From NCBI GenBank assembly GCA_964436855.1, contig CAYTED010000001.1, positions 64,129 through 128,128 on the forward strand: DNA of 64,000 bases, read 5' to 3'. Made by a program: the position numbers and the translations under genes. Within the stretch, counting starts at the first letter, position 1. Each line of letters starts with the position of its first letter. Positions 1,460 through 61,927 of this stretch are shown piece after piece. The DNA comes from an uncultured Bdellovibrionales bacterium (GTDB lineage Bacteria; Patescibacteriota; Minisyncoccia; Moranbacterales; UBA1568). Below the pieces are notes generated by a model. The model ran no database searches. It had not been told where the DNA came from and was given only the letters and a program-made list of their open reading frames with translations.

Positions 1460-1494
1460 TAAAATGGCTAAGTTAAGCGAATAATTACGAACCG

Positions 1495-2583: not shown

Positions 2584-2642
2584 TTTTCCTTCTCCCTCCC
2601 TCTTCCAAAGAGAATAAAAGAAAAGGTTGTGATGAAAAGACT

Positions 2643-5421: not shown

Positions 5422-5427
5422 TCATAT

Positions 5428-6432: not shown

Positions 6433-6482
6433 ATTGTATACATTATCCGCACATACTTAAATGCTTCCTTTTTAAAAATATC

Positions 6483-19362: not shown

Positions 19363-19419
19363 AATTTTCCTTTGTTAGAAGGATTTTTTGTATTATACTG
19401 TCAAAAGAATTCTTTGGAA

Positions 19420-26191: not shown

Positions 26192-26269
26192 GAATGTAAT
26201 ATTATCTTTATTACTATTAAAAAGTATATAAAAGAAAGTATAAAAAAACAAAACCTAGGTTTACACCAT

Positions 26270-31649: not shown

Positions 31650-31665
31650 ATACGTCCGAATCGCT

Positions 31666-34600: not shown

Positions 34601-34986
34601 TCCTTGTTATTCCGCTTGCGGTATCTGGCGTTTTTCTTATTTTTGCGTTCGGAAAAATCCCTCTCTCTTTCCCTGCGCTCATTGGCGTCCTCGCACTCTT
34701 CGGCATCGTCGTCAACAACTCGATCATTATGGTCGACAAAATCAACAAAAACCTCGACCATAATATGCCGGTTATCGAAGCGATCGCCGATGGCGCCGCA
34801 AGCCGTCTCGAACCGATTCTTCTCACCGCGATAACAACGATTGTCGGTCTTATTCCGATCACTCTCTCCGATCCGATCTGGCAAGGGCTCGGCGGCGCTA
34901 TTATCGCCGGACTCCTTCTTTCTGGCGTGATGAAACTCTTCTTCATCCCCCTCATCTACCACGCTTGGTTTGCGGAAACAAAATAA
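31666..34986 (+). CDS. RND-family efflux transporter permease (AcrB/MMPL-like)
   Basis: 1106 aa with 12 TM helices in a 1+5/1+5 arrangement separated by large loop domains; conserved TM4-like region (VDNAIV). Confidence 0.85.
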   Translation: MSFQSLDKLSLDNETRASRAAKYFRNIRAAVLIAFTFSAIGLASFFTLPRELNPEIRIPLVFVSTVLTGADPQDIESLVTIPLEDAFEGLDGLEKVSSSSSAGISTIVLEFSSGTDPEQAKADTQSAIDTVTTLPEDAKDPSLHVLDFQNEPVIQAATIGTNGSATLATASKRIKDTLEDIPGVKQVSISGSESEEIDIILFPETLQDKTLSIPVLTDSIHRALESLPVGSVAEQSTSFSVGINPLVTSVEDLQNLPLRIGEHIEPLSHFAFIREYPLPENAALFAGTPNDKTSEAVYLRIFKTDDADITITGTAVKKAIEQLDRELGTKTFIVFDGPKDVEHQSSDLTRDFLITITLVLGILFFFFGIRQSLIAALAIPFTFLVTFTIMQVYGLSISFISLFSLLLALGILVDNAIVITAAFTSYYRSGRFTPIETALLVWRDFRGVIFATTLTTVWAFVPLLLATGIIGEFIRAIPIVVSTSLIVSALAAMFLVLPFIATLFSGSFPSRVTKFLKWILAGIIFFGIIFFVPSGKNSFLLSIDLLLWVGVLYFGWRLLRKEWPSLSFRYPSLKTYTAFFRRFADHGLVSLDPIAKRYEAFIHTLLENRSSRRKAFVIVIGTAVFSYLLFPLGFVVNEFFPKSDENFLFIGIELPEGTTQEQSEKIGRSVIDTVRDIPEISIITTEVGQVVPQGGGASSNAGANRTLGTVRLIPKEDRERSVFEVAKEIEQRMQNFPSGKISVTVLSGGPPAGSDIEVKLRGPEFDILEEKSLMVSEWLSSQPGISNVRISPESGSGKLVFHPDMGILAAHGISLDSIGLLLRTASDGFTIKDDLHLEGGDERHEVNIRLTPNREASPSLFETIPIPAGNGSYLPLSSLGHFELEESPSLITREDGKRTISVSASVAKGISVSETNANLLAFLGTETFPSGYDYRTGGVNEENEKSVQSILLAMILSSFLIFGTMVLQLGSYRKAMIVLLVIPLAVSGVFLIFAFGKIPLSFPALIGVLALFGIVVNNSIIMVDKINKNLDHNMPVIEAIADGAASRLEPILLTAITTIVGLIPITLSDPIWQGLGGAIIAGLLLSGVMKLFFIPLIYHAWFAETK

Positions 34987-37376: not shown

Positions 37377-39134
37377 TTATTCCTTCGTCGCGCGCATCAC
37401 TTCTTCAAGCGAGGTCATCCCCTGCACACATTTCGAAAAACCGTCCTCGACCATAGTCGCCATTCCATTCTCGAACCGGGCACATTTTTCAAGCTCCTCT
37501 GTCGTCGCGGACTGCGAGACAAACTTTCGAATATTCGATTCCATTCCAAGCACTTCGTAGATACCCATCCGACCGCGATACCCTTCCCCGCCACACTGAT
37601 CGCACCCTTCCGCCTGATAGAAATCGATATCTGCCCACCCCTTCGCCTTCTCGACAAATTTTTTCGACTCTTTATGCTTTTTTAAAAACGTAAGAATCGC
37701 ATCGATATCGTAATACTTTCCAAGTGATTCGATCTGTTTTTCGTCCATTTTGTACGGTTTCCGACAATCCGGACAAAGTCGCCGCACGAGACGCTGACCA
37801 ATAATAACATTTACCGTGGAGGCAATGAGAAATGCCTCCGCACCCATATCAAGCATACGCGGCAACGTCGCCGCCGCACTGTTTGTATGAAGCGTCGAGA
37901 GAACAAGGTGTCCTGTCATTGCTGCGTGCATCGCGATCTCGAGCGTCTCACCATCGCGAATTTCACCAACCATAATAATATCCGGATCTTGCCGAAGAAG
38001 TGCCCGGAGTCCTGCCGCAAAGGTCATCCCGACTTTCGGATTGATTTGTGTCTGATTCACGCGCGACATCCGATATTCCACCGGATCTTCAACCGTCGAA
38101 ATATTCACGTCCGGTGTATTCAAAATATCCATCGCTGTATAGAGCGTCGTCGTCTTTCCGCTTCCCGTCGGTCCCGTCACAAGGATCATCCCGTTTGGCT
38201 TGTTCATTTCGCGCTGAATCGTCTCGAGCGCATCGGAAGAGAGTCCCATTTTTTCAAGCGTGAGTCCACTCGACGATTCATTAAGAAGTCGCATCACAAT
38301 TTTTTCCCCATCAAAAATCGGGAGAATACTGACACGAAACGAAATCTTATATTCGTATTTTTCTATTTTAAACCGACCATCTTGTGGAGTACGGTGTTCA
38401 TCGAGTTTTAAATTCGAAAGGACCTTGATACGCGCGACAATTCCCGCTGCCGTATCCTTTGGAAGCGTCATCGCATCGTGCAAGACACCGTCAATCCGAT
38501 ACCGAACGCGCACTTCTTTTTCATCCGGTTCGATATGAATATCTGACGCCTGCTGTAAAATGGCATGCTTGAGCAGTGTATCAACAACGCGAATAATCGG
38601 GAGTCCCGCCGCCATTTTTTCAAGGTTTTCCCCCTTCTCCCCACTCTCTTCATCACCGGATTTCACCTTATCCGTAAGAATCTCTCCGAACTCCGCTTCG
38701 AGACTTCGTCCATACTGAAGGAGAATGGATTGGATACTCTCCTTAGTTGTGAGGCACGGAATAATTTTCAAACCCGTCTTCTTTTTGATAAAATCGATCG
38801 TCTGAAGATCCTCCGGATTGAGCATGGCAACCTTCAAATTGGCACCAGATTTTTCAAATGCCACAATATTCGATTTTTTGGCAATCAATTCGGGAATAAT
38901 ATGCAGCACATCTTGTGCAACCGTTTCTTTGGAAAGATCCACAAAAGGAATACCAAGCACGTAGGCATATACTTTCTGCAAATCCGCTTCGGTAACAAGT
39001 TTTTTCTCAAGCAGTACCGCACCAAGATCTGCTTGCGCCTTGGTTGCTTCCGCGAAAGACAATTCCAAGTCTTCTTTTTTTACAAGATTCGAGTCCTCAA
39101 GAAATTCTTTCAATTGAACATTACTGACACGCAT
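37377..39134 (-). CDS. pilB: Type IV pilus assembly ATPase PilB (GspE family)
   Basis: GspE N-domain, Walker A LVTGPTGSGKTTTLY, Asp/His boxes and the C-terminal tetra-Cys CDQCGGEGYRG; start set at MRVSNVQL. Confidence 0.85.
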   Translation of the reverse strand: MRVSNVQLKEFLEDSNLVKKEDLELSFAEATKAQADLGAVLLEKKLVTEADLQKVYAYVLGIPFVDLSKETVAQDVLHIIPELIAKKSNIVAFEKSGANLKVAMLNPEDLQTIDFIKKKTGLKIIPCLTTKESIQSILLQYGRSLEAEFGEILTDKVKSGDEESGEKGENLEKMAAGLPIIRVVDTLLKHAILQQASDIHIEPDEKEVRVRYRIDGVLHDAMTLPKDTAAGIVARIKVLSNLKLDEHRTPQDGRFKIEKYEYKISFRVSILPIFDGEKIVMRLLNESSSGLTLEKMGLSSDALETIQREMNKPNGMILVTGPTGSGKTTTLYTAMDILNTPDVNISTVEDPVEYRMSRVNQTQINPKVGMTFAAGLRALLRQDPDIIMVGEIRDGETLEIAMHAAMTGHLVLSTLHTNSAAATLPRMLDMGAEAFLIASTVNVIIGQRLVRRLCPDCRKPYKMDEKQIESLGKYYDIDAILTFLKKHKESKKFVEKAKGWADIDFYQAEGCDQCGGEGYRGRMGIYEVLGMESNIRKFVSQSATTEELEKCARFENGMATMVEDGFSKCVQGMTSLEEVMRATKE

Positions 39135-39322
39135 AAGTGTTTGTTTTTTACTGAAAGCCTGTTGAGAAAATCCGTTTTCTACTGTAACCTCGAAACTTCG
39201 ACTGCGCACTCCTGATCTTCCGCCCTCCCAAAATCTCGAAAGCTTTCGCTCAAAATTTCAGAATTGTGTGACAAAAGAAATTTTCTCAACAGACTCTTAT
39301 AAAAAGTATATCATTTTTCGCA

Positions 39323-39392: not shown

Positions 39393-41123
<1,731 letters not shown>

Positions 41124-45316: not shown

Positions 45317-45670
45317 TCAATTCTTCTTTTTGGGTCGATTAGAATATTCCGTATGGAAAAAATCCTCAAACCGAGGTGTCTCATTAAATAACCGGTCGCG
45401 TTCGCCTAGTTTTTTGCGAACACGATCAAAAGCCTGTTCCTGAAAACCAACTTCCCGCGAATGGGTATTTAAATACTCTTTTTTTCGACCTTCAGACCAC
45501 GTGTATTTCAAAATGGAATTTTTCCAAAAAATACCACCCAGTGCCAAAGTGATGAGAAAGAAAAACGTAAAGAAATATCGATACCGACGAAACCAAAACT
45601 GAACAACTCGCTTCAATACGCTCTTCGAAATTGACGTTGTAATTTTTTTTCCAAAAAGAAGCATAGGCAT
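45317..45670 (-). CDS. Small membrane-anchored hypothetical protein at the end of the pilMNO cluster (possible PilP-like)
   Basis: Single TM (FFTFFFLITLALGGIFW); immediately follows the pilO-like gene with an abutting stop/start. Confidence 0.4.
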   Translation of the reverse strand: MPMLLFGKKITTSISKSVLKRVVQFWFRRYRYFFTFFFLITLALGGIFWKNSILKYTWSEGRKKEYLNTHSREVGFQEQAFDRVRKKLGERDRLFNETPRFEDFFHTEYSNRPKKKN

Positions 45671-46446
45671 TAATTTTTCACATACACAACCACACTAAAT
45701 GTTCCTTCTACAAAATTGTTGGGTTCTGGTTCTGGTTCTGGTTCTGGCTCTGACACAACCTCCACTGCCGTACTATTGGAAGAAGTCTCAGTGGGCAATG
45801 ATCGCTGTAATAAATCGCCGCCCGGCTTCTTTGGCGCTTCCTCGTTTTCAACAAAATGAATATTGATCGAAACCACATCGAGAGCGAACGGAATGGTTTC
45901 CAATCGATGGAGAAAGAGCCCTACCTCCGGATACTTCCCGGTAACGTGAATCACAAAAGAAAGATACTCCTGAAAAGGAAGATTTCCAAGAATAGATTCG
46001 TCTTTTTTCTTTTCGGGAGCGGACTGCCCCTCCTTATCCTTGGCATCGGCGGCATCCTTGCGTTCTTTGGCGGTGGTCGAGGATTTTTTCTTTTCCAATT
46101 CCTTCGACTCGATCGATATGGTAACTCCGGATTTCTCTGCAGTTTTTTCAATCGCCTCAATAAATCGAACAATATCTTCTCGATTCGTAAAAATATCAAG
46201 CACGCCTCCATTTTCTCGAATCAGCGCATACTGCCGCTCAAGCTCGGGCAATTCCCCGAGCCGTTTCCTGGTTGCTTCCTCAAGAATTTTCGTTTCCTCC
46301 CTCTTGTCAAGCATCGATCGGATATTTCGTTTCACCGGATCGATTCCCCATTGCCACAGAAGATACATCCCAAGAAAAAATCCGAGGATAATAATAAGTG
46401 GAAAATATTTTCGAAAAGAGGCATTCATAAGTTTTCTCGTATACAA
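45670..46446 (-). CDS. pilO: PilO-like type IV pilus assembly protein
   Basis: Single N-terminal TM plus coiled-coil, sitting in a pilM-pilN-pilO order. Confidence 0.55.
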   Translation of the reverse strand: MYTRKLMNASFRKYFPLIIILGFFLGMYLLWQWGIDPVKRNIRSMLDKREETKILEEATRKRLGELPELERQYALIRENGGVLDIFTNREDIVRFIEAIEKTAEKSGVTISIESKELEKKKSSTTAKERKDAADAKDKEGQSAPEKKKDESILGNLPFQEYLSFVIHVTGKYPEVGLFLHRLETIPFALDVVSINIHFVENEEAPKKPGGDLLQRSLPTETSSNSTAVEVVSEPEPEPEPEPNNFVEGTFSVVVYVKN

Positions 46447-46979
46447 TCTTTGCGGAGATCAAATTCTATTTGAAAAGAAATGTCCTGCCGTGAAACCAGA
46501 TTTGCGATCGGAACATTCACATCCAAGAAGCATGATTCGCTTTTCAATCGACTTTCAAACTCAAGTAAGTGATCACGGATATCTGCTTCGCCGGAAAGCG
46601 TTACGTGATACTCTTTCGTCGAAAGATCCGAAAGGGCAACACCTTGTGGAAATTTCTTTTGCAGCAAAAGAAGAAATCGAGTCCAGTACAAATGATCGGA
46701 TTGCCCCTTGAGGACGAGTGTCGTCCGTTCGTTGACATCACGAAATGACTTCTCCATCTCTGTAATTTTTTTTCGATCAGAATCCTCATGAGACTCTATT
46801 CCGATAGAAACATTCTCCTGCTCGAATTTCACAATAAAAAGCGCGCCAATCAAAATTCCCAAATAAAAAATCTCAAGAAAAAAATAAAAAAACACCTGCG
46901 ACAACACAAAACGAGATCGCACGTTTTCTTTCAAGATCTCTTTCCGTTCCTCCGGAAGTAAATTAAGCAAGATATTCAT
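46425..46979 (-). CDS. pilN: PilN-like type IV pilus assembly protein
   Basis: MNILLNLLPEERKE N-terminus (typical PilN 'LLP' start) followed by a TM helix; overlaps the pilM stop. Confidence 0.55.
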   Translation of the reverse strand: MNILLNLLPEERKEILKENVRSRFVLSQVFFYFFLEIFYLGILIGALFIVKFEQENVSIGIESHEDSDRKKITEMEKSFRDVNERTTLVLKGQSDHLYWTRFLLLLQKKFPQGVALSDLSTKEYHVTLSGEADIRDHLLEFESRLKSESCFLDVNVPIANLVSRQDISFQIEFDLRKDCIRENL

Positions 46980-48078
46980 AGATTTCAATATTGGGAAGAC
47001 CGAGTCCGATAGCGGTTGAGTATTGTACGGATCGATTTCGATCGATCGGAGGAATATCACCGTCAAGGCCGACATTGATCCACGGGTCGCCAAGTTCCAC
47101 CTTTCGACCGAGTTTCCAAGTCAAATACGGTATAAGTCCGCGCATATTCGCGCCACCGCCACAGAGAATCACCGCATCGACCGCATTGGAATATCCGAGA
47201 TTATTCAAATAAAAATCAATCGATTTTTGCATCTCGGAAACCAGATTGTCGAGAATCGGCTGTGCCGCCCGATAAAGCGGATTATCGTCAGTAAACGAAC
47301 CGATTCCTCGAGAAAGTTTCATTTTTTCCGCGTCTTCAAAAGAAATTTTCAATTCCTTTGATATGGCGTCAGTAATGCCCTGCGACGAAATCGGTACACT
47401 CGATGTAAAACACGGGATATTGCCGACGCAGACAAAAAAACTCGTCCGACGATCTCCGATATCCACAATGAGTGTCGTGCGCGAAAAATCCTTGCTCGTC
47501 CCCGGAAGATCCGGAAGAAGACTTCTCGCCTGCGCCACCGCCTCGGTTTCCATGCCTATCACATCAAAACCGGCTTGTTCAAGTACATTGTAAAAATCGT
47601 CCACCACACCCCTTGAAACCGCGACCACAAGAGTGAACATTTTATCTTTCGAGTGCTCTGCAAACACACCCTCCCGAAGCACCTGCCAATCGTAATATAC
47701 CTGATCGATCGGAAGCGGAATATTTGCCTCAATTTCCCATTTCATCGCCTCTTCAATTTCCTCTTCCGCCATTCTCGGAAGGGAAATAATTCGAAGAAAC
47801 GCCTTAATCTCCGGAAGAGAACAGACGACCTTTTTCGCGTGAATAGATCGGGGCTTCCCCTGCTGAACAATTTGCTGGAGAGCTTTCACAACCGCTCCTG
47901 AATCTTTGATCTCCCCGTCTACAACAGCGCCCATCGGAAGCGGAACCGAGGAATACGAACGGAATACTCGTCTTCCCCCTTCCTCCTCGATCCATGCGGC
48001 CTTAAGAGACAGGTCCGAAATATCAAGCCCAAACGGTCGGGGAAAATAATTAATGATTTTTTTCTGAAGAAAACTCAT
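46963..48078 (-). CDS. pilM: Type IV pilus assembly protein PilM (actin-like ATPase fold)
   Basis: N-terminal FGLDISDLSLKAA and the FtsA/PilM-like fold pattern; the pilN/pilO genes follow; start set at MSFLQKK. Confidence 0.75.
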   Translation of the reverse strand: MSFLQKKIINYFPRPFGLDISDLSLKAAWIEEEGGRRVFRSYSSVPLPMGAVVDGEIKDSGAVVKALQQIVQQGKPRSIHAKKVVCSLPEIKAFLRIISLPRMAEEEIEEAMKWEIEANIPLPIDQVYYDWQVLREGVFAEHSKDKMFTLVVAVSRGVVDDFYNVLEQAGFDVIGMETEAVAQARSLLPDLPGTSKDFSRTTLIVDIGDRRTSFFVCVGNIPCFTSSVPISSQGITDAISKELKISFEDAEKMKLSRGIGSFTDDNPLYRAAQPILDNLVSEMQKSIDFYLNNLGYSNAVDAVILCGGGANMRGLIPYLTWKLGRKVELGDPWINVGLDGDIPPIDRNRSVQYSTAIGLGLPNIEIYEYLA

Positions 48079-48174
48079 TTCTTTTTTTGTGTTGCTTTTT
48101 TTATTCGCTTTTACCCATATTGTATCATAAAAATTAGCGGGGATTCCACTCACGCCGAGATTGTGCACGAAGGT

Positions 48175-49608
48175 TCAAATCTCCTCCCAGAGATCGAGAA
48201 GATATTGACTTCCTGTTGGAAAATACGGCGGCGGGCAATAGAGCAAATTGTTGTCATAAATAAGATCGCGGTTCCGATACCCTGACACATGATTCCCCAG
48301 TGTGTCCGCCCACGCAAATCCATACCGTTCATTACTCACGATCGACCCGTAAATGGTAATTGTATCTCGAATCGCATAGGTTCCGGTATAATTCGCCCGT
48401 CCAACACGACCATTCTGCGCAAGAAGTGCGGCATCAATACGCAGGAAATCATTGCTTTGTCGATACACTTCCACATCATTTTGACCAATAAGGCCGATCA
48501 TATCCGAGCAATCGTAATTCGTATAACGAACATCCTTACCGAGATACATCGTTTTTTGCGAACTGGAAATAAGGTTCGCAGCCACTATCGTTACACGTCG
48601 TCCATTCACCGTCCCTTCGAGCCACACGTTATTCTCTACAAAAATCACCCCATTGTCCGGAATAGAATAGGTTGACCATCCGCCGCTGTAATTGTTAATT
48701 TCATTCGTCGAAGCATTAAAACTTTGCACGGTACGGATATCGAACGTATCGTTTGCCTTCAAGATGATATGTCTTCCTTGATGGGTATTATCAAAATATC
48801 GACTCCCATTCGTTCCCGCTTTCGCTTCGCTTTTCATCAGATTCAAATCTCCGAGAACACCGTTAAAATCAATCGGCGCAACAGGAAACTCCCTTCCAGC
48901 TTCAAACACATCTGTTCGATTCGGGACTGGATTCGGGGGCGCTTCCGCGGAACGATAGGAACTATTTGAACCAGTTGCCGGAGGAGGATTCACATGCGTA
49001 TGTACTCCAAACTCATTCCCTCCCGTATGATCCGGGTCGTTATAATCCGAAACCGAACTCGTCACAAGATTATGAGCAAGACCATCAAACCGAATACCGC
49101 CATTCGAATGAATTTTTCCGAATACCTCCGTTCCTTCGCCAAAACGAACGGGCTGATTCGACATCACGGCGCTTTCGCTCCATGACGGGCGACGGAGCCG
49201 GACACGAATTGTTCGCGCAAGGCTCGGATTTCCGGTGGTATACCCTCTAGACTCGATATAAACGATCGTCTCACTCGGATCGGGTGGAGTTACCGTAATC
49301 GAATACGATCCATTTCCGAAACTCCCGACGTATGGCGTATTGACTCCGAAAGGGTATGGCGCAGTGCTGGTCCAAAACGCCCTGACTTGAGAAGCGGTGC
49401 GACCGTCAAGTTGGTGCGCAAGATACCACTTGTAGAAATGCACCCCTGCTTCCGCTATCTGCAATGCCTGCTCACGATCATGCTGCTTGATGCTGTATTG
49501 AATTTGCGAGACGACAAAACCAAGAATTGCCGTAAGCAAAATCATCACAATCGTCATAACGGAAAGCGCATATGCGATCGCAGAGCCGGAAAGCGTGGTA
49601 CGTTTCAT
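48175..49608 (-). CDS. Large PilX-like pilus-associated protein with an N-terminal TM anchor
   Basis: MKRTTLSGSAIAYALSVMTIVMILLTAILG N-terminal hydrophobic segment as in PilX_N minor pilins; sits between the pilin genes and pilM. Confidence 0.55.
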   Translation of the reverse strand: MKRTTLSGSAIAYALSVMTIVMILLTAILGFVVSQIQYSIKQHDREQALQIAEAGVHFYKWYLAHQLDGRTASQVRAFWTSTAPYPFGVNTPYVGSFGNGSYSITVTPPDPSETIVYIESRGYTTGNPSLARTIRVRLRRPSWSESAVMSNQPVRFGEGTEVFGKIHSNGGIRFDGLAHNLVTSSVSDYNDPDHTGGNEFGVHTHVNPPPATGSNSSYRSAEAPPNPVPNRTDVFEAGREFPVAPIDFNGVLGDLNLMKSEAKAGTNGSRYFDNTHQGRHIILKANDTFDIRTVQSFNASTNEINNYSGGWSTYSIPDNGVIFVENNVWLEGTVNGRRVTIVAANLISSSQKTMYLGKDVRYTNYDCSDMIGLIGQNDVEVYRQSNDFLRIDAALLAQNGRVGRANYTGTYAIRDTITIYGSIVSNERYGFAWADTLGNHVSGYRNRDLIYDNNLLYCPPPYFPTGSQYLLDLWEEI

Positions 49609-49615
49609 ACAATAC

Positions 49616-50242
49616 TTAGTAATTATTGAGATTCCGCAACTCAACAAACGATTCGATATTGATGTGATCCGGCGCATGCAAAGGATCGATATTCACCATA
49701 AGATGTACCTTGATCATACGGGCATCGGAAACCGATATTGGTGTCGTAAGCGGATTCTTGACGGTATCAGTCGGATAGTCATCATTGTAATAATAAAATA
49801 CCGGATCCGTCGGCGTATTCGCAATCGAACCCGCGAGCACTTGCGTCGTATCGTCCCCTGCCGGATAAGTAACAGGAAAACCGGAAACTGGATTAGTTAT
49901 ACCGCGATAAAGGGAACTTCCATTGAGATAATAATGAACACGCTCGGTATCTCCGTCATTATCGATATCAATATACAATTTGAGATCAAAATCATCACCA
50001 GATTCAATCGGATAATCGCCATTGTCCGCTTGTCGCGATTTTCGAATTTCAGAAATAACCTGTCCAACACCTCGTGAAGCGATAAAGGAGGCGTTTCCCA
50101 TTTCCAAAACAAACTTATTGTTATCCCAACTCTTGAGCAAAAGAAGTGTTACTCCCTCCATACCGATAAAGAGTATGGCAATCGCCATAATCATCTCTAT
50201 GAATGACATTCCTTGGGTGGTCATTGTTCGTTGCTGCATCAT
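49616..50242 (-). CDS. Prepilin-type minor pilin/pseudopilin
   Basis: N-terminal ...TTQG|MSFIEMIMAIAILFIG, a class III signal with Gly at -1 and Glu at +5. Confidence 0.7.
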   Translation of the reverse strand: MMQQRTMTTQGMSFIEMIMAIAILFIGMEGVTLLLLKSWDNNKFVLEMGNASFIASRGVGQVISEIRKSRQADNGDYPIESGDDFDLKLYIDIDNDGDTERVHYYLNGSSLYRGITNPVSGFPVTYPAGDDTTQVLAGSIANTPTDPVFYYYNDDYPTDTVKNPLTTPISVSDARMIKVHLMVNIDPLHAPDHINIESFVELRNLNNY

Positions 50243-50257
50243 ATCAGTTCATATATT

Positions 50258-51622
50258 TTAGAGTGCCGTCAGGCTCATTGTCTTTTTTTCTAAAATACTC
50301 CCGGAAACCGAAATATTGCTTGTTTTCGGATTGAATCCGCTTGCGGAAATTTCGATATCATAATTTCCAGCGACAAGCGGTGTATCGACATTCGGAAAAA
50401 ACGCCCTTCCGTACGTGTCGGTCGTTACAGAGACATCATATCCAAGGGTTGTATTGAAAAGACGAACCGACGCTCCGGAAACAGCCGTTGTATCAGCGGC
50501 ATTGTTGACTGTAATGATCGCAGAAGAATACGACTTGCTTGCGACAATCATTTTTACAGTCTTTGTCGTATTCGGAAGGACGCTCATATTTCCAAATGGA
50601 AGTTCCTCGGGATCAAGTCGTACGTATTCGTATCCCGTTTCACTTGAATCAAGATCGATACTATAAGACCCTGCGCTTCGTCCGCTAATATTCCATTCGC
50701 CATCTCCATTCGTCGTTTCGGTCGATGAGTAATCATATACCGGATCTCCGGATGGCGGAGTTGTCCCCAACACAAGACCCCCGGAGAGTGAAAACATGAT
50801 ATCCGGAACGTCTAAGCCAAATGGATTCACCGTCTGAAAATTAATCCCTGATGTCCGATCAAGAACAAGAGTCGTTGTTGTCAGACTTCCTGCAACAACG
50901 GAAGCATGCACATTGACCGGATTGAATGTCGATGTCGGATACGGAGGATATGTTTGATTACTGTAACTCCCGCTTTTACTTACGGTAATCGAATATGCTT
51001 GAATCGACGCGCGTGCACCGACACTCGTCGCGTTGCCAGTGGCATCCGTTGTAAGAGTTGTATTGACCGGAGGAGAAACAGTTGAATTCACGATATGAAC
51101 CGATGCTCCGGAAACACCCGCCCCCGAAGAGTCGAGTACGTTTACCGAAAGAATTCCCGTTCCCGCAGCAACCGATTCGACCCCGTCGAGCGAAAAAATC
51201 GATGTCACCTCCACTGTTTCCGAGGGACTTCCTCCGCCCCAAGAAACGCGAATGGTCGCTTTTTTGTAATCATTCGGAGCGGTATCCGTTCCAAGTGAAA
51301 GCAATCCATCGGTCGGATCGTCCACAAACGGAATTTCCGTATGCACCTTATACGTGATAGTATTCACGGCAATCGATTGATCCTGCATAATAGTTCCCGC
51401 TGGAATACCGGCAATCGTTCCAATGTCGTCGTAAATAAGACTTCGAAGAATTTCCATCCGCTGATTCGCAAGCGCGGTTGCCCCGAGGCGGTTTTTCGCA
51501 TTAATAATATGCTTTGTGCCAAGTGTCCACGTTTCATAAAAACTCATTGTAATCATCGAGAAAATAAAAAGAAACGTAAGCGCCTCAATCAAGGTAAAGC
51601 CCCTCTGAAAAGAATTTTGCAT
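50258..51622 (-). CDS. Giant type IV prepilin (~454 aa) with Ig-like C-terminal modules
   Basis: MQNSFQRG|FTLIEALTFLFIF canonical prepilin leader (G-1, F+1, E+5); long Thr/Ser/Val-rich beta-rich C-terminus. Confidence 0.7.
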   Translation of the reverse strand: MQNSFQRGFTLIEALTFLFIFSMITMSFYETWTLGTKHIINAKNRLGATALANQRMEILRSLIYDDIGTIAGIPAGTIMQDQSIAVNTITYKVHTEIPFVDDPTDGLLSLGTDTAPNDYKKATIRVSWGGGSPSETVEVTSIFSLDGVESVAAGTGILSVNVLDSSGAGVSGASVHIVNSTVSPPVNTTLTTDATGNATSVGARASIQAYSITVSKSGSYSNQTYPPYPTSTFNPVNVHASVVAGSLTTTTLVLDRTSGINFQTVNPFGLDVPDIMFSLSGGLVLGTTPPSGDPVYDYSSTETTNGDGEWNISGRSAGSYSIDLDSSETGYEYVRLDPEELPFGNMSVLPNTTKTVKMIVASKSYSSAIITVNNAADTTAVSGASVRLFNTTLGYDVSVTTDTYGRAFFPNVDTPLVAGNYDIEISASGFNPKTSNISVSGSILEKKTMSLTAL

Positions 51623-51818
51623 TTTGTCTGCCAATGGGCGAATTGAATCTCGGATCATTTCTTTTGTCTGATGTTCATCTTGGAGCGAAATTCGAGGCAA
51701 TCAAAAGGAACGGAGAGAGCCATGCTGATAAAGGCTCGACGTCGACCTACCCGCAGCACCAACGCATTGCAGGCGGGACGCCGAATCAATCAACAAAGAA
51801 ATTCGCAAGAAATGGAAA

Positions 51819-53045
51819 TTACTTAATATTCTCAAGAACACTATACATCGGCGTCAACATCGCCACCGCAAAAAACCCGACTGCACCACCGATCAGAAGC
51901 ATAAGAATCGGCTCGATGATCGAAGAGAGGTTTTTCGTAATCTGATTCACTTCTTCTTCGTAGAAATCCGCAAGGCGTGTCAATACCAACTCTGTCTTTC
52001 CGGTTTCCTCACCAACTTCGATAATTTGCGGAACAAGTATCGGAAAAATCTTCGGATATTTCTTGATAATTTTACTCAACTCTACGCCCTTCTGAATATC
52101 CGTCTGCGCCACAATGAGCGCTTCCCGATAAAACACATTTGAAAGCGTTTTCCCGACAATCGAAAGTCCATCCACCACCGACACACCGGATTTGAGAAGC
52201 GAGCTGTAGATTCGAGAGAATCGCGCGCAATTTACCTTGATAACGATATTCCCAATAATCGGAAGATAAAGAAATACGAGATGAAAAAACCGCCTTCCAA
52301 ACGGCTGCTGATAGAGAACCCTTACCAGTGCGATCAAGCCAACAAAGATACCGACGGTGATGATGGAATGATTCCGCATAAAATCGGACAGGGCGATAAT
52401 GGCAAGCGTCGATGCCGGCAACTGTACATCCATATCCTTAAAAACACCCGTGATCCTCGGAAGAATATAGGTCAACATGAGAATTCCGATTCCAATCATC
52501 GCAACCACAATCACCGCCGGATACATGAGCGCGCCACGCACTTTTGAAAGAAGCTCATGCTCCTTTTCAAGCTGCACCGCGAGAATTTCAAGCACTTGCT
52601 CCAAACTTCCACTCACCTCACCTACATTCACCATATTCACGAACAGTTCATCGAAAACTGTCGGATATTTTGCAAGTCCCTCCGAAAGGGTTGCGCCTCC
52701 CTGAAGATCATGATTGACATTTTCAAGAATTTCACGAAATTTCGCATTTCTTGTCTGTTCAGAAAGATTTGCAATCGCACGCGCCACTGGAAGCCCAGAG
52801 GAAATCATTACTGCAAGGTTTCGCGTAAACACCATTTTTTCCTTGAGCGGCACAGAAAGAAATCGGTCGAGAAATTTTATACGCGCGCCGGATTTTGTAG
52901 CGCCCTCAAGCTCTTTTGCCGACGTCAAAAGCCACCCTTCCGCACGAAGCGTTTGTGCGAGTTCTTGCTCATCCCTTGCCTCCACTTCACCACCCTGATT
53001 TTCTCCGGTGGTAATATTTTTTGCAGTATAAAGAAATTTCGACAT
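51819..53045 (-). CDS. pilC: Type IV pilus inner-membrane platform protein PilC (GspF family)
   Basis: Two GspF repeats with three TM segments; start set at MSKFLYTAKN. Confidence 0.8.
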   Translation of the reverse strand: MSKFLYTAKNITTGENQGGEVEARDEQELAQTLRAEGWLLTSAKELEGATKSGARIKFLDRFLSVPLKEKMVFTRNLAVMISSGLPVARAIANLSEQTRNAKFREILENVNHDLQGGATLSEGLAKYPTVFDELFVNMVNVGEVSGSLEQVLEILAVQLEKEHELLSKVRGALMYPAVIVVAMIGIGILMLTYILPRITGVFKDMDVQLPASTLAIIALSDFMRNHSIITVGIFVGLIALVRVLYQQPFGRRFFHLVFLYLPIIGNIVIKVNCARFSRIYSSLLKSGVSVVDGLSIVGKTLSNVFYREALIVAQTDIQKGVELSKIIKKYPKIFPILVPQIIEVGEETGKTELVLTRLADFYEEEVNQITKNLSSIIEPILMLLIGGAVGFFAVAMLTPMYSVLENIK

Positions 53046-53115: not shown

Positions 53116-54042
53116 TTACAACACCCGAATACGCGACAAGCGGCTGCGAAAGAGTTCGAAAACCTTCGGGCCGCGTGGCCTCGGGAGAAAAACGAGAGCG
53201 TTTTCACTTGCCTCAATATATCCGCCCGGAAGCGCCGAGAGCGGATTCTTTGAAATTTTCTTTTTCTGTACTCGTTCGAGACACTGCTCCAGTCGATCAA
53301 AATCAAGCAGGTTTTCCAAAAAACGTCTCACCCGAGATATCATCGGAACATCTCGTACCAAAAAATTCGGCGGCGATTCGGACAGCGAGAACTGCGGCTC
53401 GTAGCGGACGATCCATCGATTGGCAATCTCGAATTTCCGATACGTCTCCCATCCAAAAAACGGAAGAAGAAATCGATACTCGTGCGCCGAGTACACATCC
53501 TTCAAACCGATCTCGAGCGAATCATCGGTAATCCAATAATTGAGACAAGCACGATTTTTCGTCTTCTTACGATGTCGCCTTTTGCCAAAAATATGCAGCA
53601 TCACGGTAACAATCACTCGCCCCGTAAAAATCCGCCCTTTCTTGAGAACGATCAGAAGATCCCAATCACTTGATGCATCGCTTTGCTCCATCGCAAGACT
53701 TCCCGTTACGCCGATCATCCGTACAAACGGAAAAAATCGCATCCAAAAAACAAGGGACCGGACACGTTTCAGTCGCTCAACTGACACCTTTCCATGCGAA
53801 AGCCGAACATCAACCAAACAGTCTCTCCCTTGAAGAAAATAAAAGCCACGATCCGATCCGATCCGATCCTCTTTCACAAGCATTTGTAGCGTTTCGCGAA
53901 CCGACCCGATCGTTACCTCCTGTGTGGAAATATCCGCCTCAAGCGAAAGAAAGTGCTTCCATACCTCAAAGGCCGTGAGTGGGTAGTTCATCACATCATA
54001 ATATGCAAGTGTCGCGACGATATTTTTGACGAGAGAAATCAT
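53116..54042 (-). CDS. Nucleotidyltransferase-fold (Pol-beta-like) domain protein, function unknown
   Basis: GVTGSLAMEQSDASSDWDLLIV matches the minimal NTase G[SG]-x(9-13)-D-x-[DE] motif; the start is uncertain (alternative M at 54117). Confidence 0.5.
   Translation of the reverse strand: MISLVKNIVATLAYYDVMNYPLTAFEVWKHFLSLEADISTQEVTIGSVRETLQMLVKEDRIGSDRGFYFLQGRDCLVDVRLSHGKVSVERLKRVRSLVFWMRFFPFVRMIGVTGSLAMEQSDASSDWDLLIVLKKGRIFTGRVIVTVMLHIFGKRRHRKKTKNRACLNYWITDDSLEIGLKDVYSAHEYRFLLPFFGWETYRKFEIANRWIVRYEPQFSLSESPPNFLVRDVPMISRVRRFLENLLDFDRLEQCLERVQKKKISKNPLSALPGGYIEASENALVFLPRPRGPKVFELFRSRLSRIRVL
53850..53869. repeat. (GATCC)x4 pentanucleotide tandem repeat inside the NTase-domain CDS
   Basis: cgatccgatccgatccgatcc seen directly; unit length is not a multiple of 3; encodes DRIGSDRG. 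Confidence 0.7.
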
Positions 54043-57269: not shown

Positions 57270-58223
57270 CTACACCTTATAGTATTCTCGATACCAATCA
57301 ACGAAATTCTTGATACCCTGTTCGATACGGGTTGTTGGCTTCCATCCAAGCTTACGAAGTTTTCTGATATCGGCAACCGTACTCGGCACATCTCCCGGCT
57401 GGATCGGCAAGAGATTCTTTTTCGCTTTCTTTCCGCAACATTTCTCGATCACTTCAATATACCGCATCAGTGTCTCTTCTTTATCGCCACCGATATTCAT
57501 CACGCCGTAGGGAAGATCGGCATCAAGCGTCGTGAGTGTACCGGAAACAATATCATCGATATACGTAAAATTGCGCGACATTTTTCCACGATTGTAGACA
57601 TCGATCGGTTTATCGGCGAGCGTGTTACTCACAAATTTATAGAGCGCCATATCCGGCCTACCCCACGGACCATACACCGTAAAAAACCGCAGTCCCGTCG
57701 TCGGCATGCCGGAAAGATGACTGAATGTATGCGCAAGAAGTTCAGTTGCCTTTTTTGTTGCCGCATACGGCGACATCGGCGTGTCCACACTGTCGGTTTC
57801 CGAAAATGGCGGTTTATTCATTCCATAGATCGAGGACGACGAAGCATAGACGAAATTCTTCATCTTATACTTCACCGCGAGATCAAGAAGATTCGTCGTT
57901 CCCATCACATTTACATCAGCATACAGCATCGGATCAAGAATCGAATTCCGAACTCCCGCCATTGCCGCGAGATGAACCACCTTTTCCGGCTTATCATTCT
58001 TAAACACTCGCTCCATGAATTTCCGATCGCGGATATCTCCCTTCCGCAACACAAACTTCCCCTTATAATCCTTCAAAAACTTCGAAATACGATCCTTCTT
58101 GAGCTTTGGATCATAGTAAGCATTAAAATTATCCACGAGAATCGGCGTATCTCCTCGTTCCATCAACGCCTTCGCACACGCCGAACCTATAAAACCAGCA
58201 CCTCCTGTAATTAACACTCGCAT
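57270..58223 (-). CDS. NAD-dependent nucleotide-sugar epimerase (UDP-glucuronate/UDP-glucose 4-epimerase-like)
   Basis: MRVLITGGAGFIGSA, YAASK catalytic motif and the YGPWGRPDMA region of WbpP/Cap1J-like epimerases. Confidence 0.85.
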   Translation of the reverse strand: MRVLITGGAGFIGSACAKALMERGDTPILVDNFNAYYDPKLKKDRISKFLKDYKGKFVLRKGDIRDRKFMERVFKNDKPEKVVHLAAMAGVRNSILDPMLYADVNVMGTTNLLDLAVKYKMKNFVYASSSSIYGMNKPPFSETDSVDTPMSPYAATKKATELLAHTFSHLSGMPTTGLRFFTVYGPWGRPDMALYKFVSNTLADKPIDVYNRGKMSRNFTYIDDIVSGTLTTLDADLPYGVMNIGGDKEETLMRYIEVIEKCCGKKAKKNLLPIQPGDVPSTVADIRKLRKLGWKPTTRIEQGIKNFVDWYREYYKV

Positions 58224-58262
58224 ATCATTGAAGATTAAGTCTGATTAACGCGCTCCCGACCC

Positions 58263-58331
58263 GCCTGCAACGCTATGCCAGCCCGCATCGCTACGCGAAG
58301 CGTTACTGGCGGGCGTAGCATTGCGGGCAGG
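58263..58331. repeat. GC-rich imperfect palindrome / structured element in an intergenic region
   Basis: CCAGCCCGCATCGCTACGC ... GCGTAGCATTGCGGGCAGG (16 of 19 complementary) around a 16-nt loop; GC-rich in otherwise AT-moderate DNA; no trailing T-run. Confidence 0.5.
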
Positions 58332-58402
58332 TAAATTCCGCGACACCCGTAATCAACACTTTCATAAAATATTTTCTTAACACATTTATGTACGAAGATA
58401 CT

Positions 58403-59536
58403 TCATTGAATACTCTCATCCATCCCTCCTACGTCGATTTCATCCGCCTCAACTCCCTCAATTTCACTGGCTTCCTCCTGTGCCATAAATTCCCGGGAAA
58501 ACTTCTGGATCAGATCAAACTCGTTTTCTCCGAGCGTCCGATCCACCAAGAGTCGCGTTTCCCGCATTCCATGGTGAAAAAAATACAACTCCGCATGTCG
58601 ACGCTTCGAGAGATACTTTGCCTCAATCGTCGCAAAGGCACCAAGCGCGGCTTCGTTTACCATGGTATCTACCACAAAATAGTGAATTCCATTCCGTTCC
58701 TCATAGTAACTCGTCGGATTGTGCCCAGAAATAACCGCCACGACATTTCCAGCACTTTCAAGAACCTTTCTGACCTGCGGGGCATTCTCGATATTTTTAA
58801 TATACGTCCTCCCTGTTGTGCTCGGAACTGGGAGCGGGGAGTGATGTGAGAAAACCAATACCGGTCGATCCGTCTTCAGTGCCTCCGAAAGCCATGCCAA
58901 CTCCTCTTTGTTTACATACCCGGTTACGTATGATTTCATGGTTCGATGTATATCCGTCTTCGGATCATAATTCGTATCCATCACAATCAACCGCCAATCA
59001 CCAATATCTTGATATATATGTGTCTCGGAAAGCCCAAGCACCTCTTTCACCTCCTCAATGGAAAGCGACCGAACATCATGGTTTCCGACCGCATACAATC
59101 GCGGCGCTTCAAGCTTCTTGAAAATATTATTCACCAGCTCAAGTTGTCGCCGAGCGGTCAGCAGCTTCACGCCGGAAGATTCGACATAATCCCCGCCGCC
59201 GATTACGATATCCGGATAAAATACGGTATTCATATAAGCTACCGCCTTTTCAAGCTCAAGCGGCGCCTGATTTGTTAGTTTATGCTTCAGACGCTTACGT
59301 GTTCCATATTCCCAATCCGTTACGAACCCGATTTTCAGAAGCGAGGGCTCTTCCTGAAGCATTTCTTCAAGCTCTTGCTCCCGGTCCGCTTCGAATCGAT
59401 CCTCTTGCCAGTCATCCCAATAATTGAACAATCCGAAACCGAGCCCGGTAAGTGCCGCTCCAAGAGCAAGAAACACAAGCCACATCGGACTGTGCCGCCT
59501 TAATTGAGACAATTTTTTTTTCATCATTTCAACCAT
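58403..59536 (-). CDS. Membrane-anchored metallophosphoesterase (calcineurin-like)
   Basis: N-terminal TM, then GDxxD/GNHD metallophosphatase motifs (VIGGGDYV...AVGNHD...GHNP). Confidence 0.7.
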   Translation of the reverse strand: MVEMMKKKLSQLRRHSPMWLVFLALGAALTGLGFGLFNYWDDWQEDRFEADREQELEEMLQEEPSLLKIGFVTDWEYGTRKRLKHKLTNQAPLELEKAVAYMNTVFYPDIVIGGGDYVESSGVKLLTARRQLELVNNIFKKLEAPRLYAVGNHDVRSLSIEEVKEVLGLSETHIYQDIGDWRLIVMDTNYDPKTDIHRTMKSYVTGYVNKEELAWLSEALKTDRPVLVFSHHSPLPVPSTTGRTYIKNIENAPQVRKVLESAGNVVAVISGHNPTSYYEERNGIHYFVVDTMVNEAALGAFATIEAKYLSKRRHAELYFFHHGMRETRLLVDRTLGENEFDLIQKFSREFMAQEEASEIEGVEADEIDVGGMDESIQ

Positions 59537-59543
59537 AGCATGA

Positions 59544-60734
59544 TTATTTCACTTTCTCCACATTGATCCGCGCTCGCAAAAAATCGTAATACTCGCGATT
59601 ATCTCTCACTGTTGTGACATATTTCTCAAGCACCTTCTTCCGCGCCGCCTCCCCTATACTCTTTCGCAGTTCTTCATTTTCAATCAAACGCGACAACTTC
59701 TCAAACCATTCCTCCTCATTCGATGCCACAAATCCATCCACGCCATCTACAATCGCCTCGCGAAACGTTTGCGTCGCCGCGGCGACCGTTGGCACTCCTA
59801 CAATTCCCGCCTCAAACCACTTGAGCTCCGACTTCGATTCGCAGAACGGGTCGCCGATCACCAGCGGCGCCAAATTGATATCAGTCGATGCAATATTTTC
59901 AAAATGTTTCTTCCGATCAGCAAAAGGCAATCGCTCAATCCGATCCGAAAATTCGGCAAACCGATCCGGCAATACGAGCGGCCCCGCAATCACCAATTTC
60001 ACATTCGGATATTTTCCAAGAACACGAAAGAGTGCCTCGCTTATCGTTTCAAAGTCCTTATTATGTGTCGCCGTTCCGCTGAAGTATCCGATGCGGAGAG
60101 AGTCTGGAATTTGGAATTTGGAATTTGGAATAATTTCTCCAATCCACTTCAGATCTTCTTTCGAAAGCTTATTCCGAACGACAAATACTTTCTTCCCCTT
60201 CCCGCGCAACCGATCGGCGAGATATGATGTTGTCGTTGTGCAGACTTTTACAGCGGGATCATTCACAATCTCGCCACCGACACCATGCTCGTACAGTTTC
60301 TTCTCGAGCGCGTTCATTTTTTTATAAAAATCCGTCTGTGTCACAAACGTCGGTTCATAGACAAGGTCATCCGTTTCGAAAATCAGAGTTTTTCCTAACG
60401 CTTTTGCGCGATCAAAAAGCGTCTTCACTTTTCCGATGTAGAGCGTCCGATGAAATACAAAGACGGAAAATTTCTCCGCATACCGCGGAAGGAACGGATT
60501 GTACTGTGTTGTTACCGCGACACGAAATCCGCGCTCCCGCAATTCCTCCGCCACGTGTTTGCCCCGGTATCGCGCACTATCTCCCACGCCACTCGAAATA
60601 ATAAGAATATCCCCCGAAAGCATCCTCGGTAAAAGATTGAGTCCGGCAAAAAAAATACGCCCCATTCCACGCCACGCTCCGTCTCGCCGAAGCGTACTCC
60701 ACGCCTTTCCGATATTGATTAAAAAAAGTTTCAT
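59544..60734 (-). CDS. Glycosyltransferase family 4
   Basis: C-terminal GIVGVPTVAAATQTFREAI...GFVA GT4 region; start set at MKLFLIN (ATGA overlap with the upstream GT4). Confidence 0.75.
   Translation of the reverse strand: MKLFLINIGKAWSTLRRDGAWRGMGRIFFAGLNLLPRMLSGDILIISSGVGDSARYRGKHVAEELRERGFRVAVTTQYNPFLPRYAEKFSVFVFHRTLYIGKVKTLFDRAKALGKTLIFETDDLVYEPTFVTQTDFYKKMNALEKKLYEHGVGGEIVNDPAVKVCTTTTSYLADRLRGKGKKVFVVRNKLSKEDLKWIGEIIPNSKFQIPDSLRIGYFSGTATHNKDFETISEALFRVLGKYPNVKLVIAGPLVLPDRFAEFSDRIERLPFADRKKHFENIASTDINLAPLVIGDPFCESKSELKWFEAGIVGVPTVAAATQTFREAIVDGVDGFVASNEEEWFEKLSRLIENEELRKSIGEAARKKVLEKYVTTVRDNREYYDFLRARINVEKVK
60105..60130. repeat. (GGAATTT)x3.7 heptanucleotide tandem repeat inside the GT4 CDS
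   Basis: ggaatttggaatttggaatttggaat seen directly; encodes IPNSKFQIP on the minus strand. Confidence 0.7.
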
Positions 60735-61927
60735 AGATTTTTCCGTATCGTTTCTTCCAATTTCTCCGCCGGGAGATCCCAACTGAACGCCTCCGCGCGT
60801 GACCGATTGATCTTCCCTTTTTCCTGTCGAAGCGTTTCGCTTTCAACCAACCGAAGAATCGCCGCCGCAAGCGCTTCCGGAGTTTTCTCGGTCGCGTATT
60901 CGCCACCCCCCTCCAGATAGTTTCGGTTATTCATTGTTTCAAAGCAAGCGACCGGCAATCCCGCGCCCATATACTGAAGCGTTTTTCCGCTCGCTTGTTT
61001 CACCGATTCTTCTTTGGGATCAACTCCGATATCCGAGAATCGCAAAATTTCCGGAAGTGAAAAATACGGGAGTGGTGAAATGACTGTCGCGTGATGCGCA
61101 AATACTTCGCGCTGCAAATAGTTCGAAATTTGATCAACCGGAAACCCGGCGATCACAAAGTGTGCGTTTGGATTTTTCTCACAGACAATCGGTACCGCAT
61201 CGAGTAAAAGACGAATCCCTTTGTTCGGGATAAGCGCGCCGGTATACGTTACGATCACTTTTTCTTTCGGAATATGATACTTCTCACAGAGCGTTTCTTT
61301 TGCGTCAATTCCCTCAAACATCTGCAACCGCACCCCATCAAGAAGCACCTCGCATTTTTTATCTTTTCTCGATTGTGCGATCGTCTCGGCATTCTCCCAC
61401 GAACTCGCAAATACAAGATCGCCCATATTGTTAATCCGCTGCTCGAGAAATCGAAAAATTGATTTCAAAAGTCTGCCGCCAAGGTAGGCGTGCGATACCA
61501 TCTCCTTCACCAAACTCCCGTGAAAATCCGCGACAAGAATAATGTTTCGCCAAAATAACAACTTCTGTACGATCCACCCGATAATCACCCCTTCGTGCAA
61601 GTGCCCGTGAATCACATCCGGCCGTTTCGTGCGTGCCAAAAAATACACTTTTTTGATCAAGAGGAGATCGAGAATGATTTTTTGCCAATCCGGACCCGCC
61701 TCAAGTTTCTTGTACCAAAAAAGCCACCGACGAATCCGCCGCACGTCAATCTTTGACCCCAGCGACTCGGGAAGATCCTTTCCGATATGATAGGTCGCGA
61801 TCGTAACGCTGTGCCCGCGCCGCTCCATCGCAAGCGCTTCTTCGAGAATCCGAATATGTGTCCCGCGATCCGCAAAAAACGGCGTCGGCGCCACCACGAG
61901 TATGTTCAAATATTTCCCTTCTTGCAT
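60731..61927 (-). CDS. Glycosyltransferase family 4
   Basis: N-terminal KYLNILVVAPTPFFADRGTHIRILEE and C-terminal GT4 region. Confidence 0.8.
   Translation of the reverse strand: MQEGKYLNILVVAPTPFFADRGTHIRILEEALAMERRGHSVTIATYHIGKDLPESLGSKIDVRRIRRWLFWYKKLEAGPDWQKIILDLLLIKKVYFLARTKRPDVIHGHLHEGVIIGWIVQKLLFWRNIILVADFHGSLVKEMVSHAYLGGRLLKSIFRFLEQRINNMGDLVFASSWENAETIAQSRKDKKCEVLLDGVRLQMFEGIDAKETLCEKYHIPKEKVIVTYTGALIPNKGIRLLLDAVPIVCEKNPNAHFVIAGFPVDQISNYLQREVFAHHATVISPLPYFSLPEILRFSDIGVDPKEESVKQASGKTLQYMGAGLPVACFETMNNRNYLEGGGEYATEKTPEALAAAILRLVESETLRQEKGKINRSRAEAFSWDLPAEKLEETIRKNL

Follow-up and report, generated by a model that had tools for sequence, protein, structure and literature searches.

The few surface machines conserved in the Candidate Phyla Radiation (CPR, Patescibacteria) include type IV pili, which drive host attachment in cultivated Saccharibacteria; for the uncultivated Moranbacteria our literature search found no paper mentioning both Moranbacteria and pilin. 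Here we consider a pil locus in a stretch of 64,000 nucleotides (the whole of it is called the window below) from contig CAYTED010000001.1 of assembly GCA_964436855.1, which is deposited as an uncultured Bdellovibrionales bacterium and is placed by GTDB in the Moranbacterales. One of the genes of this locus encodes a prepilin of 454 amino acids (aa), the giant pilin, which the preliminary description of this DNA had put forward as a candidate for the major pilin. The question is whether such a protein builds the filament or is carried by it. According to our analysis it is most likely a tip-located minor pilin with a three-domain stalk and not the main building block, and we propose, with a probability of roughly 0.7, that the envelope machinery of a monoderm-type type IV pilus is encoded by this locus together with its priming/tip complex, the giant protein being a modular minor pilin and not the filament subunit.

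Results

The giant pilin is a modular prepilin

The giant pilin begins with MQNSFQRG/FTLIEALTFLFIFSMITMSF (a slash marks the cleavage point here and below), that is, with a 7-residue leader and a G/FTLIE site; an alternative start at 51658 gives a protein of 466 aa, as it was originally called. It scores 21.3 bits with the N_methyl family, whose cut-off is 21.2. Its 69 aligned homologues all keep G8 at position -1 and E13, the Glu5 of the mature protein, and at least 90% of them also have F9, T10 and I12. Canonical G/Fxx(I/L)E prepilin sites occur just twice in the whole 64 kb, and the two sites cannot be ascribed to chance, because neither the -1 Gly nor Glu5 varies among the 69 homologues of the giant pilin or the 39 homologues of the second prepilin and because the gene order recurs in 82 other loci. 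An alignment-based check of the cleavage site in the large protein had been suggested in the preliminary description; the site is conserved and apparently functional.

An AlphaFold2 model of the giant pilin, built from the 69 sequences (mean predicted local distance difference test score, pLDDT, 88.6), contains a pilin module, where a long N-terminal alpha-helix of 50 residues packs on a small antiparallel beta-sheet as expected for a pilin fold, and after it a 304-residue extension made of three beta-sandwich domains (approximately residues 155-253, 258-362 and 367-451), the middle one being the most variable with 36% identity. In this predicted model the pilin module has a GspI-type fold and resembles the I minor pseudopilins, not the major pilins. 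The protein also fits the definition of a modular pilin (Raynaud et al. 2021), having N_methyl together with domains similar to CarboxypepD_reg, SpaA and SdrD_B, and the content of Ser plus Thr is 25%, in agreement with the Ser/Thr-rich, Ig-like C-terminal modules described earlier.

The same module is used elsewhere with other partners. A phmmer search with the 150-residue module alone against 1.84 billion representative proteins returned 1213 clusters, most of them of about 450 aa; some are apparently complete at about 150 aa (P0329, P0358), and others reach 580-1375 aa, where a ConA-like lectin (Laminin_G_3), DUF2341 or FG-GAP propeller repeats come after a CarboxypepD_reg neck. Judging by these sequences, the I-like module is a carrier, which matches the carrier-plus-effector pattern of modular pilins (PMC8179133).

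Two partner pilins complete a putative tip set

Two genes downstream of the giant pilin lies a K-like gene encoding a protein of 477 aa, which begins with MKRTTLSG/SAIAYALSVMTIVMILL and has, as expected for a K-type subunit, a pilin-like hydrophobic N-terminal helix without Glu5: in 59 homologues the Gly is conserved in at least 90%, and position +5 is Tyr and not Glu, likewise in at least 90%. Its matches to known families are below the cut-offs (PilX_N, PF14341, 16.1 bits at a cut-off of 25.5; GspK, NF037980, 17.7 bits at 130), and many of its orthologues have a precomputed PF14341 match. The model of the protein combines a GspK-like pilin domain and sheet with a large beta-solenoid, again a K-type feature. 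Such an architecture is found in ComZ, a GspK-like pilin domain with an inserted beta-solenoid similar to ice-binding proteins, which is confined to the pilus tip and binds both the neighbouring minor pilin PilA2 and DNA (PMC6561018). From the ComZ architecture, therefore, we assign the 477-aa protein as a predicted ComZ/GspK-type cap subunit, with which the missing Glu5 agrees; its first designation as PilX-like was well chosen, in the sense of a PilX/GspK-type protein.

The sole low-confidence stretch of this model (pLDDT 30-39; residues ~178-244, positions 48880-49080, minus strand) holds the invariant residues D192, H195, E200, H204, T205 and H206 in the motif YNDPDHTGGNEFGVHTH, while C368 and C459 are invariant elsewhere in the protein. 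This invariant His-rich loop may bind a metal, or it may bind a partner and fold only in the complex.

Between these two genes the second prepilin is encoded, called here the 200-aa pilin, with weak N-terminal matches to N_methyl and PilV (Pfam, NCBIfam) and nothing matched among PDB sequences. In its 39 homologues G1, E6 and a DxDxDGxxE loop are invariant. By its size and position alone it may be counted as a core minor pilin, J- or H-like. The loop, DIDNDGDTE in our protein (49943-49969, minus strand), is EF-hand-like and may bind calcium in the manner of some pseudopilins and of PilY1.

Together the three pilin genes resemble an I-(J/H)-K complex of the kind that primes a pilus and forms its tip. 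The order of I, an approximately 200-aa pilin and K is the canonical order of gspI-J-K and pilV-W-X, and a K subunit without Glu5 is the hallmark of the HIJK sets, whose complex primes the assembly and is finally located at the tip of the fibre (PMC9934059). The 477-aa K-like subunit is the bulkiest of the set and has no Glu5, the signature of a priming complex, which is in favour of a tip complex here.

Conservation in Moranbacteria

For the giant pilin 260 homologues were found, 440-470 aa long and 45-63% identical to it, and those that are named belong to Candidatus Moranbacteria/Moraniibacteriota or to the Patescibacteria group. Synteny of the operon extends to 82 further loci, almost all of them in Moranbacteria genomes (the closed 1.2-Mb genome CP064975.1, a 500-kb contig and 80 GTDB species loci), with a shared order of uvrA, an open reading frame (ORF) of 307 aa, pilC, giant pilin, 200-aa pilin, 477-aa protein, pilM, pilN, pilO, an ORF of ~110 aa and a radical-SAM gene, the last being rlmN-like by position only. 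Throughout these loci the order of the three pilins is invariant and the 200-aa pilin is always adjacent; 442 GTDB species genomes contain relatives of the 477-aa protein. Of the three pilins the giant one evolves fastest (median identity 47% versus 55.5% and 60.5%), and this fast evolution, together with the 36% identity of its middle domain, fits an exposed binding module.

In one locus (L065) the giant-pilin frame, from 7971 onwards, stops after 111 residues with full-length spacing to the next gene, which can be a frameshift, a pseudogene or an assembly error, and in two others (L044, L049) the mature giant pilin has ~400-405 aa, about 45 residues below the usual. The title "uncultured Bdellovibrionales bacterium" stands on about half of the GTDB records with the operon, and Hyphomicrobium sp. 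on one; such labels are probably placeholders or erroneous.

Locus layout and machinery genes

The locus consists of eight co-oriented, tightly packed minus-strand genes from 53045 to 45317 (Table 1), all of which were also called, independently, on a Logan contig from this organism. The order pilC, prepilin, prepilin, PilX-like gene, pilM, pilN, pilO, membrane protein, with pilB placed by groEL, holds in every particular as it was first given, and so does the classification as a monoderm/CPR-type type IV pilus locus with PilB, PilC, PilM, PilN and PilO and without a secretin. As expected for type IVa-like machinery, T2SSE, T2SSF, PilM_2 and PilN are above the curated Pfam cut-offs; PilO is below its own.

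Table 1. Coordinates of the pil genes in the window and of the parts of the giant pilin
Feature	Coordinates	Strand	Basis or remarks
pilC, platform protein, 408 aa	51819..53045	-	Pfam T2SSF 6.4e-58, two stretches
giant modular prepilin, 454 aa	50258..51622	-	N_methyl, two CarboxypepD_reg stretches (Pfam)
giant pilin residues 1-150, the pilin (carrier) module	51173..51622	-	class III signal peptide, alpha1 helix 11-61, four-stranded sheet 81-144
three tandem transthyretin/CnaB/CarboxypepD_reg-like beta-sandwich domains of the giant pilin	50261..51172	-	predicted model
second prepilin, 208 aa, 197 aa mature	49616..50242	-	TQG/MSFIEM site
ComZ/GspK-like (PilX_N-type) protein, 477 aa	48175..49608	-	weak PilX_N and GspK N-terminal matches
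pilM, actin-like cytoplasmic component, 371 aa	46963..48078	-	PilM_2 1.7e-44; TIGR01175 184 bits, cut-off 133
pilN, 184 aa	46425..46979	-	PF05137 29.1 bits, cut-off 22.8
pilO-like, 252 aa	45670..46428	-	position and weak PF04350, 14.3 bits, below cut-off 22
single-pass membrane protein, 117 aa, final operon gene	45317..45670	-	family-less
pilB, assembly ATPase	37377..39209	-	T2SSE 2.5e-135 and MshEN; TIGR02538 type IV-A PilB 578 bits (best NCBIfam)

The best NCBIfam matches of PilC are GspF and PilC, both under their equivalog cut-offs, and its median identity is 69% over 75 related loci. The packing of the genes is dense: the pilin genes are separated by 15 and 7 nucleotides (nt) with no terminator after the giant pilin gene, pilN overlaps the 3' end of pilM by 17 nt, and the start of the 117-aa gene overlaps the pilO stop by 1 nt. 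The position of the pilO-like gene is kept in 66 loci with a median identity of ~30%. For the 117-aa membrane protein there was no Pfam or NCBIfam match; a gene of 109-117 aa stands at the same position in L001, L002 and L087 and was detected in 63 loci. A scan of the window for promoters and terminators gave counts like those of shuffled sequence (21 versus 15.9±3.8 and 14 versus 12.4±3.6) and therefore provides no expression information.

The pilB gene is located ~8 kb from the operon and adjoins groEL (39393-41090). We consider it as a part of the same pil system because PilB orthologues with 64-69% identity stand directly upstream of pilC in 9-10 of the 82 related loci (L051, L054, L062, L063, L065, L070, L073, L076 and L081), at ~4650-6600 in most of them and at 2632-4383 in L051.

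Pfam scans of the window, which took in the ORFs judged to be genes (most ORFs of at least 150 aa), found no Peptidase_A24 (PilD), no PilT-size ATPase and no secretin, and tblastn searches with E. coli GspO and GspD and with the PilB of the window likewise gave none of the three there, as the preliminary description had it for pilQ, pilT and pilD. PilD and PilT were also not found in the 82 related loci, which comprise the sequence around the operon only. The other window genes scanned with Pfam belong to glycan synthesis, repair and housekeeping.

The 307-aa ORF between uvrA and pilC (53116-54039, minus strand) is kept in 67 of the 82 loci with a median identity of 47%, and nothing was matched by it in Pfam, NCBIfam or PDB sequences; a stretch GS...SDWDLLIV, as read by eye, may resemble a nucleotidyltransferase motif.

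Discussion

Relation to known pili

We do not see here a new kind of system; the locus is a variant of the known modular minor pilins and of the HIJK tip complex. Its closest functional analogue is the PilABC tip complex of Streptococcus sanguinis, for the cap the nearest structural counterpart is ComZ, and the closest phylogenetic precedent is found in Saccharibacteria. The S. sanguinis pilus is likewise a monoderm type IV pilus with three minor pilins, PilA-PilB-PilC, encoded together, one of which has no Glu5; the set includes a GspI-like fold and modular pilins where an adhesive module is grafted on a short pilin module, and its PilB and PilC are modular minor pilins of 50 kDa that begin with canonical class III signal peptides and can be accommodated only at the tip (PMC8179133, PMC9934059). 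The roles are distributed differently, however. In S. sanguinis the I-like PilA is small and without Glu5, and the cargo is a vWA or a lectin, whereas the I-like subunit of Moranbacteria keeps Glu5 and bears three CnaB-like domains, and the subunit without Glu5 is the large ComZ-like protein. Sequence similarity between the pilins of S. sanguinis and those of Moranbacteria is undetectable.

The identity of the 477-aa protein to ComZ from the ComZ-PilA2 tip of Thermus thermophilus (PMC6561018; PDB 6qvi) is just 12%, and the Moranbacteria protein differs also by the invariant His-rich loop in the low-confidence region of its model. DNA binding is a property of ComZ which the Moranbacteria cap may share. 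ComZ comes from a diderm, which has a PilQ secretin, and the gene of the major pilin PilA4 is in the same locus. Compared to the GspI-GspJ-GspK tip of the T2SS (type II secretion system; Korotkov and Hol 2008, PDB 3ci0) and to PilV-PilW-PilX of type IVa pili (T4aP), the Moranbacteria set is without an H subunit or an adjacent major (pseudo)pilin, its I subunit has 454 aa instead of the ~125 aa of E. coli K-12 GspI, and its K subunit contains a beta-solenoid in place of the alpha-helical insertion of GspK.

PilX1/PilX2 of Saccharibacteria (TM7x) are, as in our case, large minor pilins of CPR pili with accessory domains, the largest having non-canonical signal peptides (PMC11623550). The same study describes small major pilins in these bacteria, with pilA2 in a locus apart from its machinery, large modular minor pilins which bind the host, and a limited homology of pilin sequences across Patescibacteria (PMC11623550). 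The cargo there consists of beta-jelly-roll/lectin-like domains and an RCC1 beta-propeller, whereas in Moranbacteria it is a CnaB-like stalk and a beta-solenoid. CofB of enterotoxigenic E. coli (ETEC) and TcpB of Vibrio cholerae are similar in having a pilin module followed by C-terminal beta-rich domains, and they are tip-located and initiate the assembly (PMC8179133); unlike the Moranbacteria protein they are type IVb homotrimers with other C-terminal folds and stand outside any I-J-K set.

Where is the major pilin?

Several observations weigh against a tip complex with a modular minor pilin. The fold assignments are based on AlphaFold models and not on solved structures, and the sequence families GspI, GspK and PilV are not reached by the three pilins: the giant pilin gave 13.6 bits with gspI (TIGR01707, cut-off 44.35), matching in the N-terminal helix only, and remained under the threshold of pilV (TIGR02523), so that by sequence it is not a GspI/PilV member. 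When the three families were compared by hhalign with single E. coli GspG-K sequences, mostly alpha1 was aligned and the subunit types were not discriminated. The giant pilin gene stands directly after pilC, as the gene of the major pilin ComGC stands after that of ComGB in com operons, and its combined content of Gly, Ala, Ser and Thr (GAST) is 41%, which is major-pilin-like. Regex scans found no major pilin, neither in the window, where they gave only the two known prepilins, nor in the 82 related loci up to 10 kb from the operon, where no small pilin appeared; ~3 kb of extra sequence beyond the window, taken from short Logan contigs, contained no pilins. A system with only these two Glu5-bearing pilins is possible.

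It would be logical to ask, then, whether the 454-aa protein is itself the major pilin, its alpha1 helices forming the core and its three Ig-like domains on each subunit giving an unusually thick, decorated pilus. An invariant canonical class III signal peptide with Glu5, the place of the gene as the first pilin gene after pilC, a GAST content within the range quoted for major pilins (PMC11623550), the lack of any small pilin in the sequences just mentioned and a very uniform length in the Moranbacteria family (440-470 aa) would all be in line with this. The pilin module, however, matches the I minor pseudopilins and not the major pilins, in other lineages it bears a variable cargo or none, the gene is co-packed with that of a K-type cap, and the known modular pilins of 50 kDa are minor and sterically restricted to the tip (PMC8179133). 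The cost per subunit, moreover, would be very high for an ultrasmall cell, and we hold such a role of the protein for very unlikely. No bacterial major pilin of such a size is known to us. Likewise very unlikely appears a situation where Moranbacteria have no small major pilin at all and the 454-aa protein, as the only abundant-looking Glu5 pilin beside the platform gene, polymerises as the main subunit into a thick bottle-brush pilus with a CnaB-like stalk on every subunit; if it were true, a major pilin far above the known bacterial sizes would have been found. The earlier proposal of a major-pilin candidate is one that we do not follow, since the gene lies directly upstream of two further pilin genes, including that of the Glu5-less cap, and the module occurs with other cargo elsewhere. 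The protein appears to be what the preliminary description had itself set against its proposal, "a pseudopilin-like adhesin rather than a filament subunit".

Another possibility is that there is no long pilus, and that the three pilins form a short pseudopilus or stub of the T2SS/Com kind, or the giant protein is a membrane adhesin anchored by alpha1, so that the ComZ-like protein and the stalk are displayed just past the wall for DNA uptake or attachment. Neither a major pilin nor PilT was detected in the sequences examined, ComZ, to which the cap is structurally most similar, acts as a DNA receptor in competence, and I-J-K sets also head the pseudopili of T2SS. We nevertheless regard this as unlikely: PilM, PilN and PilO with a type IV-A-like PilB point to a T4aP machine and not to T2SS/Com, HIJK-type complexes are described as primers of fibres of a major subunit (PMC9934059), and the absences are weak evidence when a small part of each genome is covered. 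Finally, BcpA, SpaA, SdrD and TIE are the top fold matches of the giant protein and may bring to mind a pilin of the Gram-positive sortase type or an adhesin of the MSCRAMM class (microbial surface components recognizing adhesive matrix molecules), but these matches cover only the generic beta-sandwich stalk domains. The C-terminus (...EKKTMSLTAL) has no LPXTG or other C-terminal anchor, the signal peptide is of class III and not a Sec one, and the Pfam scans of window ORFs described above gave no sortase; this identity was rejected, and we give it practically no weight.

One locus (L009, positions 1083-3032) contains between uvrC and uvrA an additional modular pilin of 606 aa, unrelated to the two known prepilins. 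Its N-terminus is GspG/PilA-like, with Ala at -1 (VSA/FTLIEVMIVVSIIGVLASI), and further parts are a pilin-size domain containing two Cys, a Gly-rich linker and a C-terminal domain of ~430 aa; a search for homologues of its pilin domain found a single fragment.

Proposed assembly

Given the gene content, the cleavage motifs, the synteny and the fold similarities of the predicted models described above, we infer a possible order of assembly, the tip location, a separate major pilin and the kind of ligand for the preferred tip complex. PilB, PilC, PilM, PilN, the PilO-like protein and possibly the 117-aa protein would constitute the motor and the alignment complex, and a secretin would be unneeded because there is no outer membrane. 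The ComZ-like 477-aa protein would enter first and cap the fibre, and then the 200-aa pilin followed by the giant pilin would dock below the cap through their alpha1 helices, the giant pilin acting as a GspI-like nucleator on which three transthyretin/CnaB-like domains are grafted C-terminally. The three-domain stalk, ~10 nm long, would project at the pilus tip beside the solenoid, and a small conventional major pilin, encoded elsewhere in the genome, would polymerise underneath. The function of the exposed stalk and solenoid would be to contact a host cell surface and/or to capture DNA.

As such, the locus offers a concrete model of the Moranbacteria pilus tip, with a long-stalked GspI-like modular pilin and a ComZ-like beta-solenoid cap. 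By our analysis an I-type core minor pilin can also serve as a carrier of stalks, lectins and propellers, which extends the modular-pilin concept past the examples of Streptococcus. We may even suggest that, if the analogy to ComZ is true, the locus may be a DNA-capture device of organisms that are unable to make their own nucleotides.

Glycan genes and other genes of the window

A glycosylation of the giant pilin by the nearby glycan machinery had also been considered in the preliminary description. Two large glycan-synthesis clusters are indeed present in the window, at 1-22400 and 57270-61927, with many GT1/GT2/GT4 glycosyltransferases, methyltransferases, epimerases, a flippase-like Polysacc_synt protein and a PMT-like GT-C (19372-21000). 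For the neighbourhood analysis two GT1/GT4 genes (59544-61927), the PMT-like GT-C and an epimerase were taken: the glycosyltransferases were not within 10 kb of the pil locus in the 82 related loci, and the epimerase was near the pil operon in 2 of the 82. The suggested link finds no support, because the neighbourhood is not conserved.

A protein of 1133 aa (22850-26251, minus strand) contains a right-handed beta-helix, an LCAT/lipase-like domain and a C-terminal Ig-like region; its hydrophobic N-terminus may be a signal peptide, and it is possibly a host-attack or surface enzyme. An HlyD-like adaptor and an AcrB-type pump of the resistance-nodulation-division (RND) kind (ACR_tran 2.7e-162) are encoded at 30504-34986 on the plus strand, despite the presumed absence of an outer membrane.

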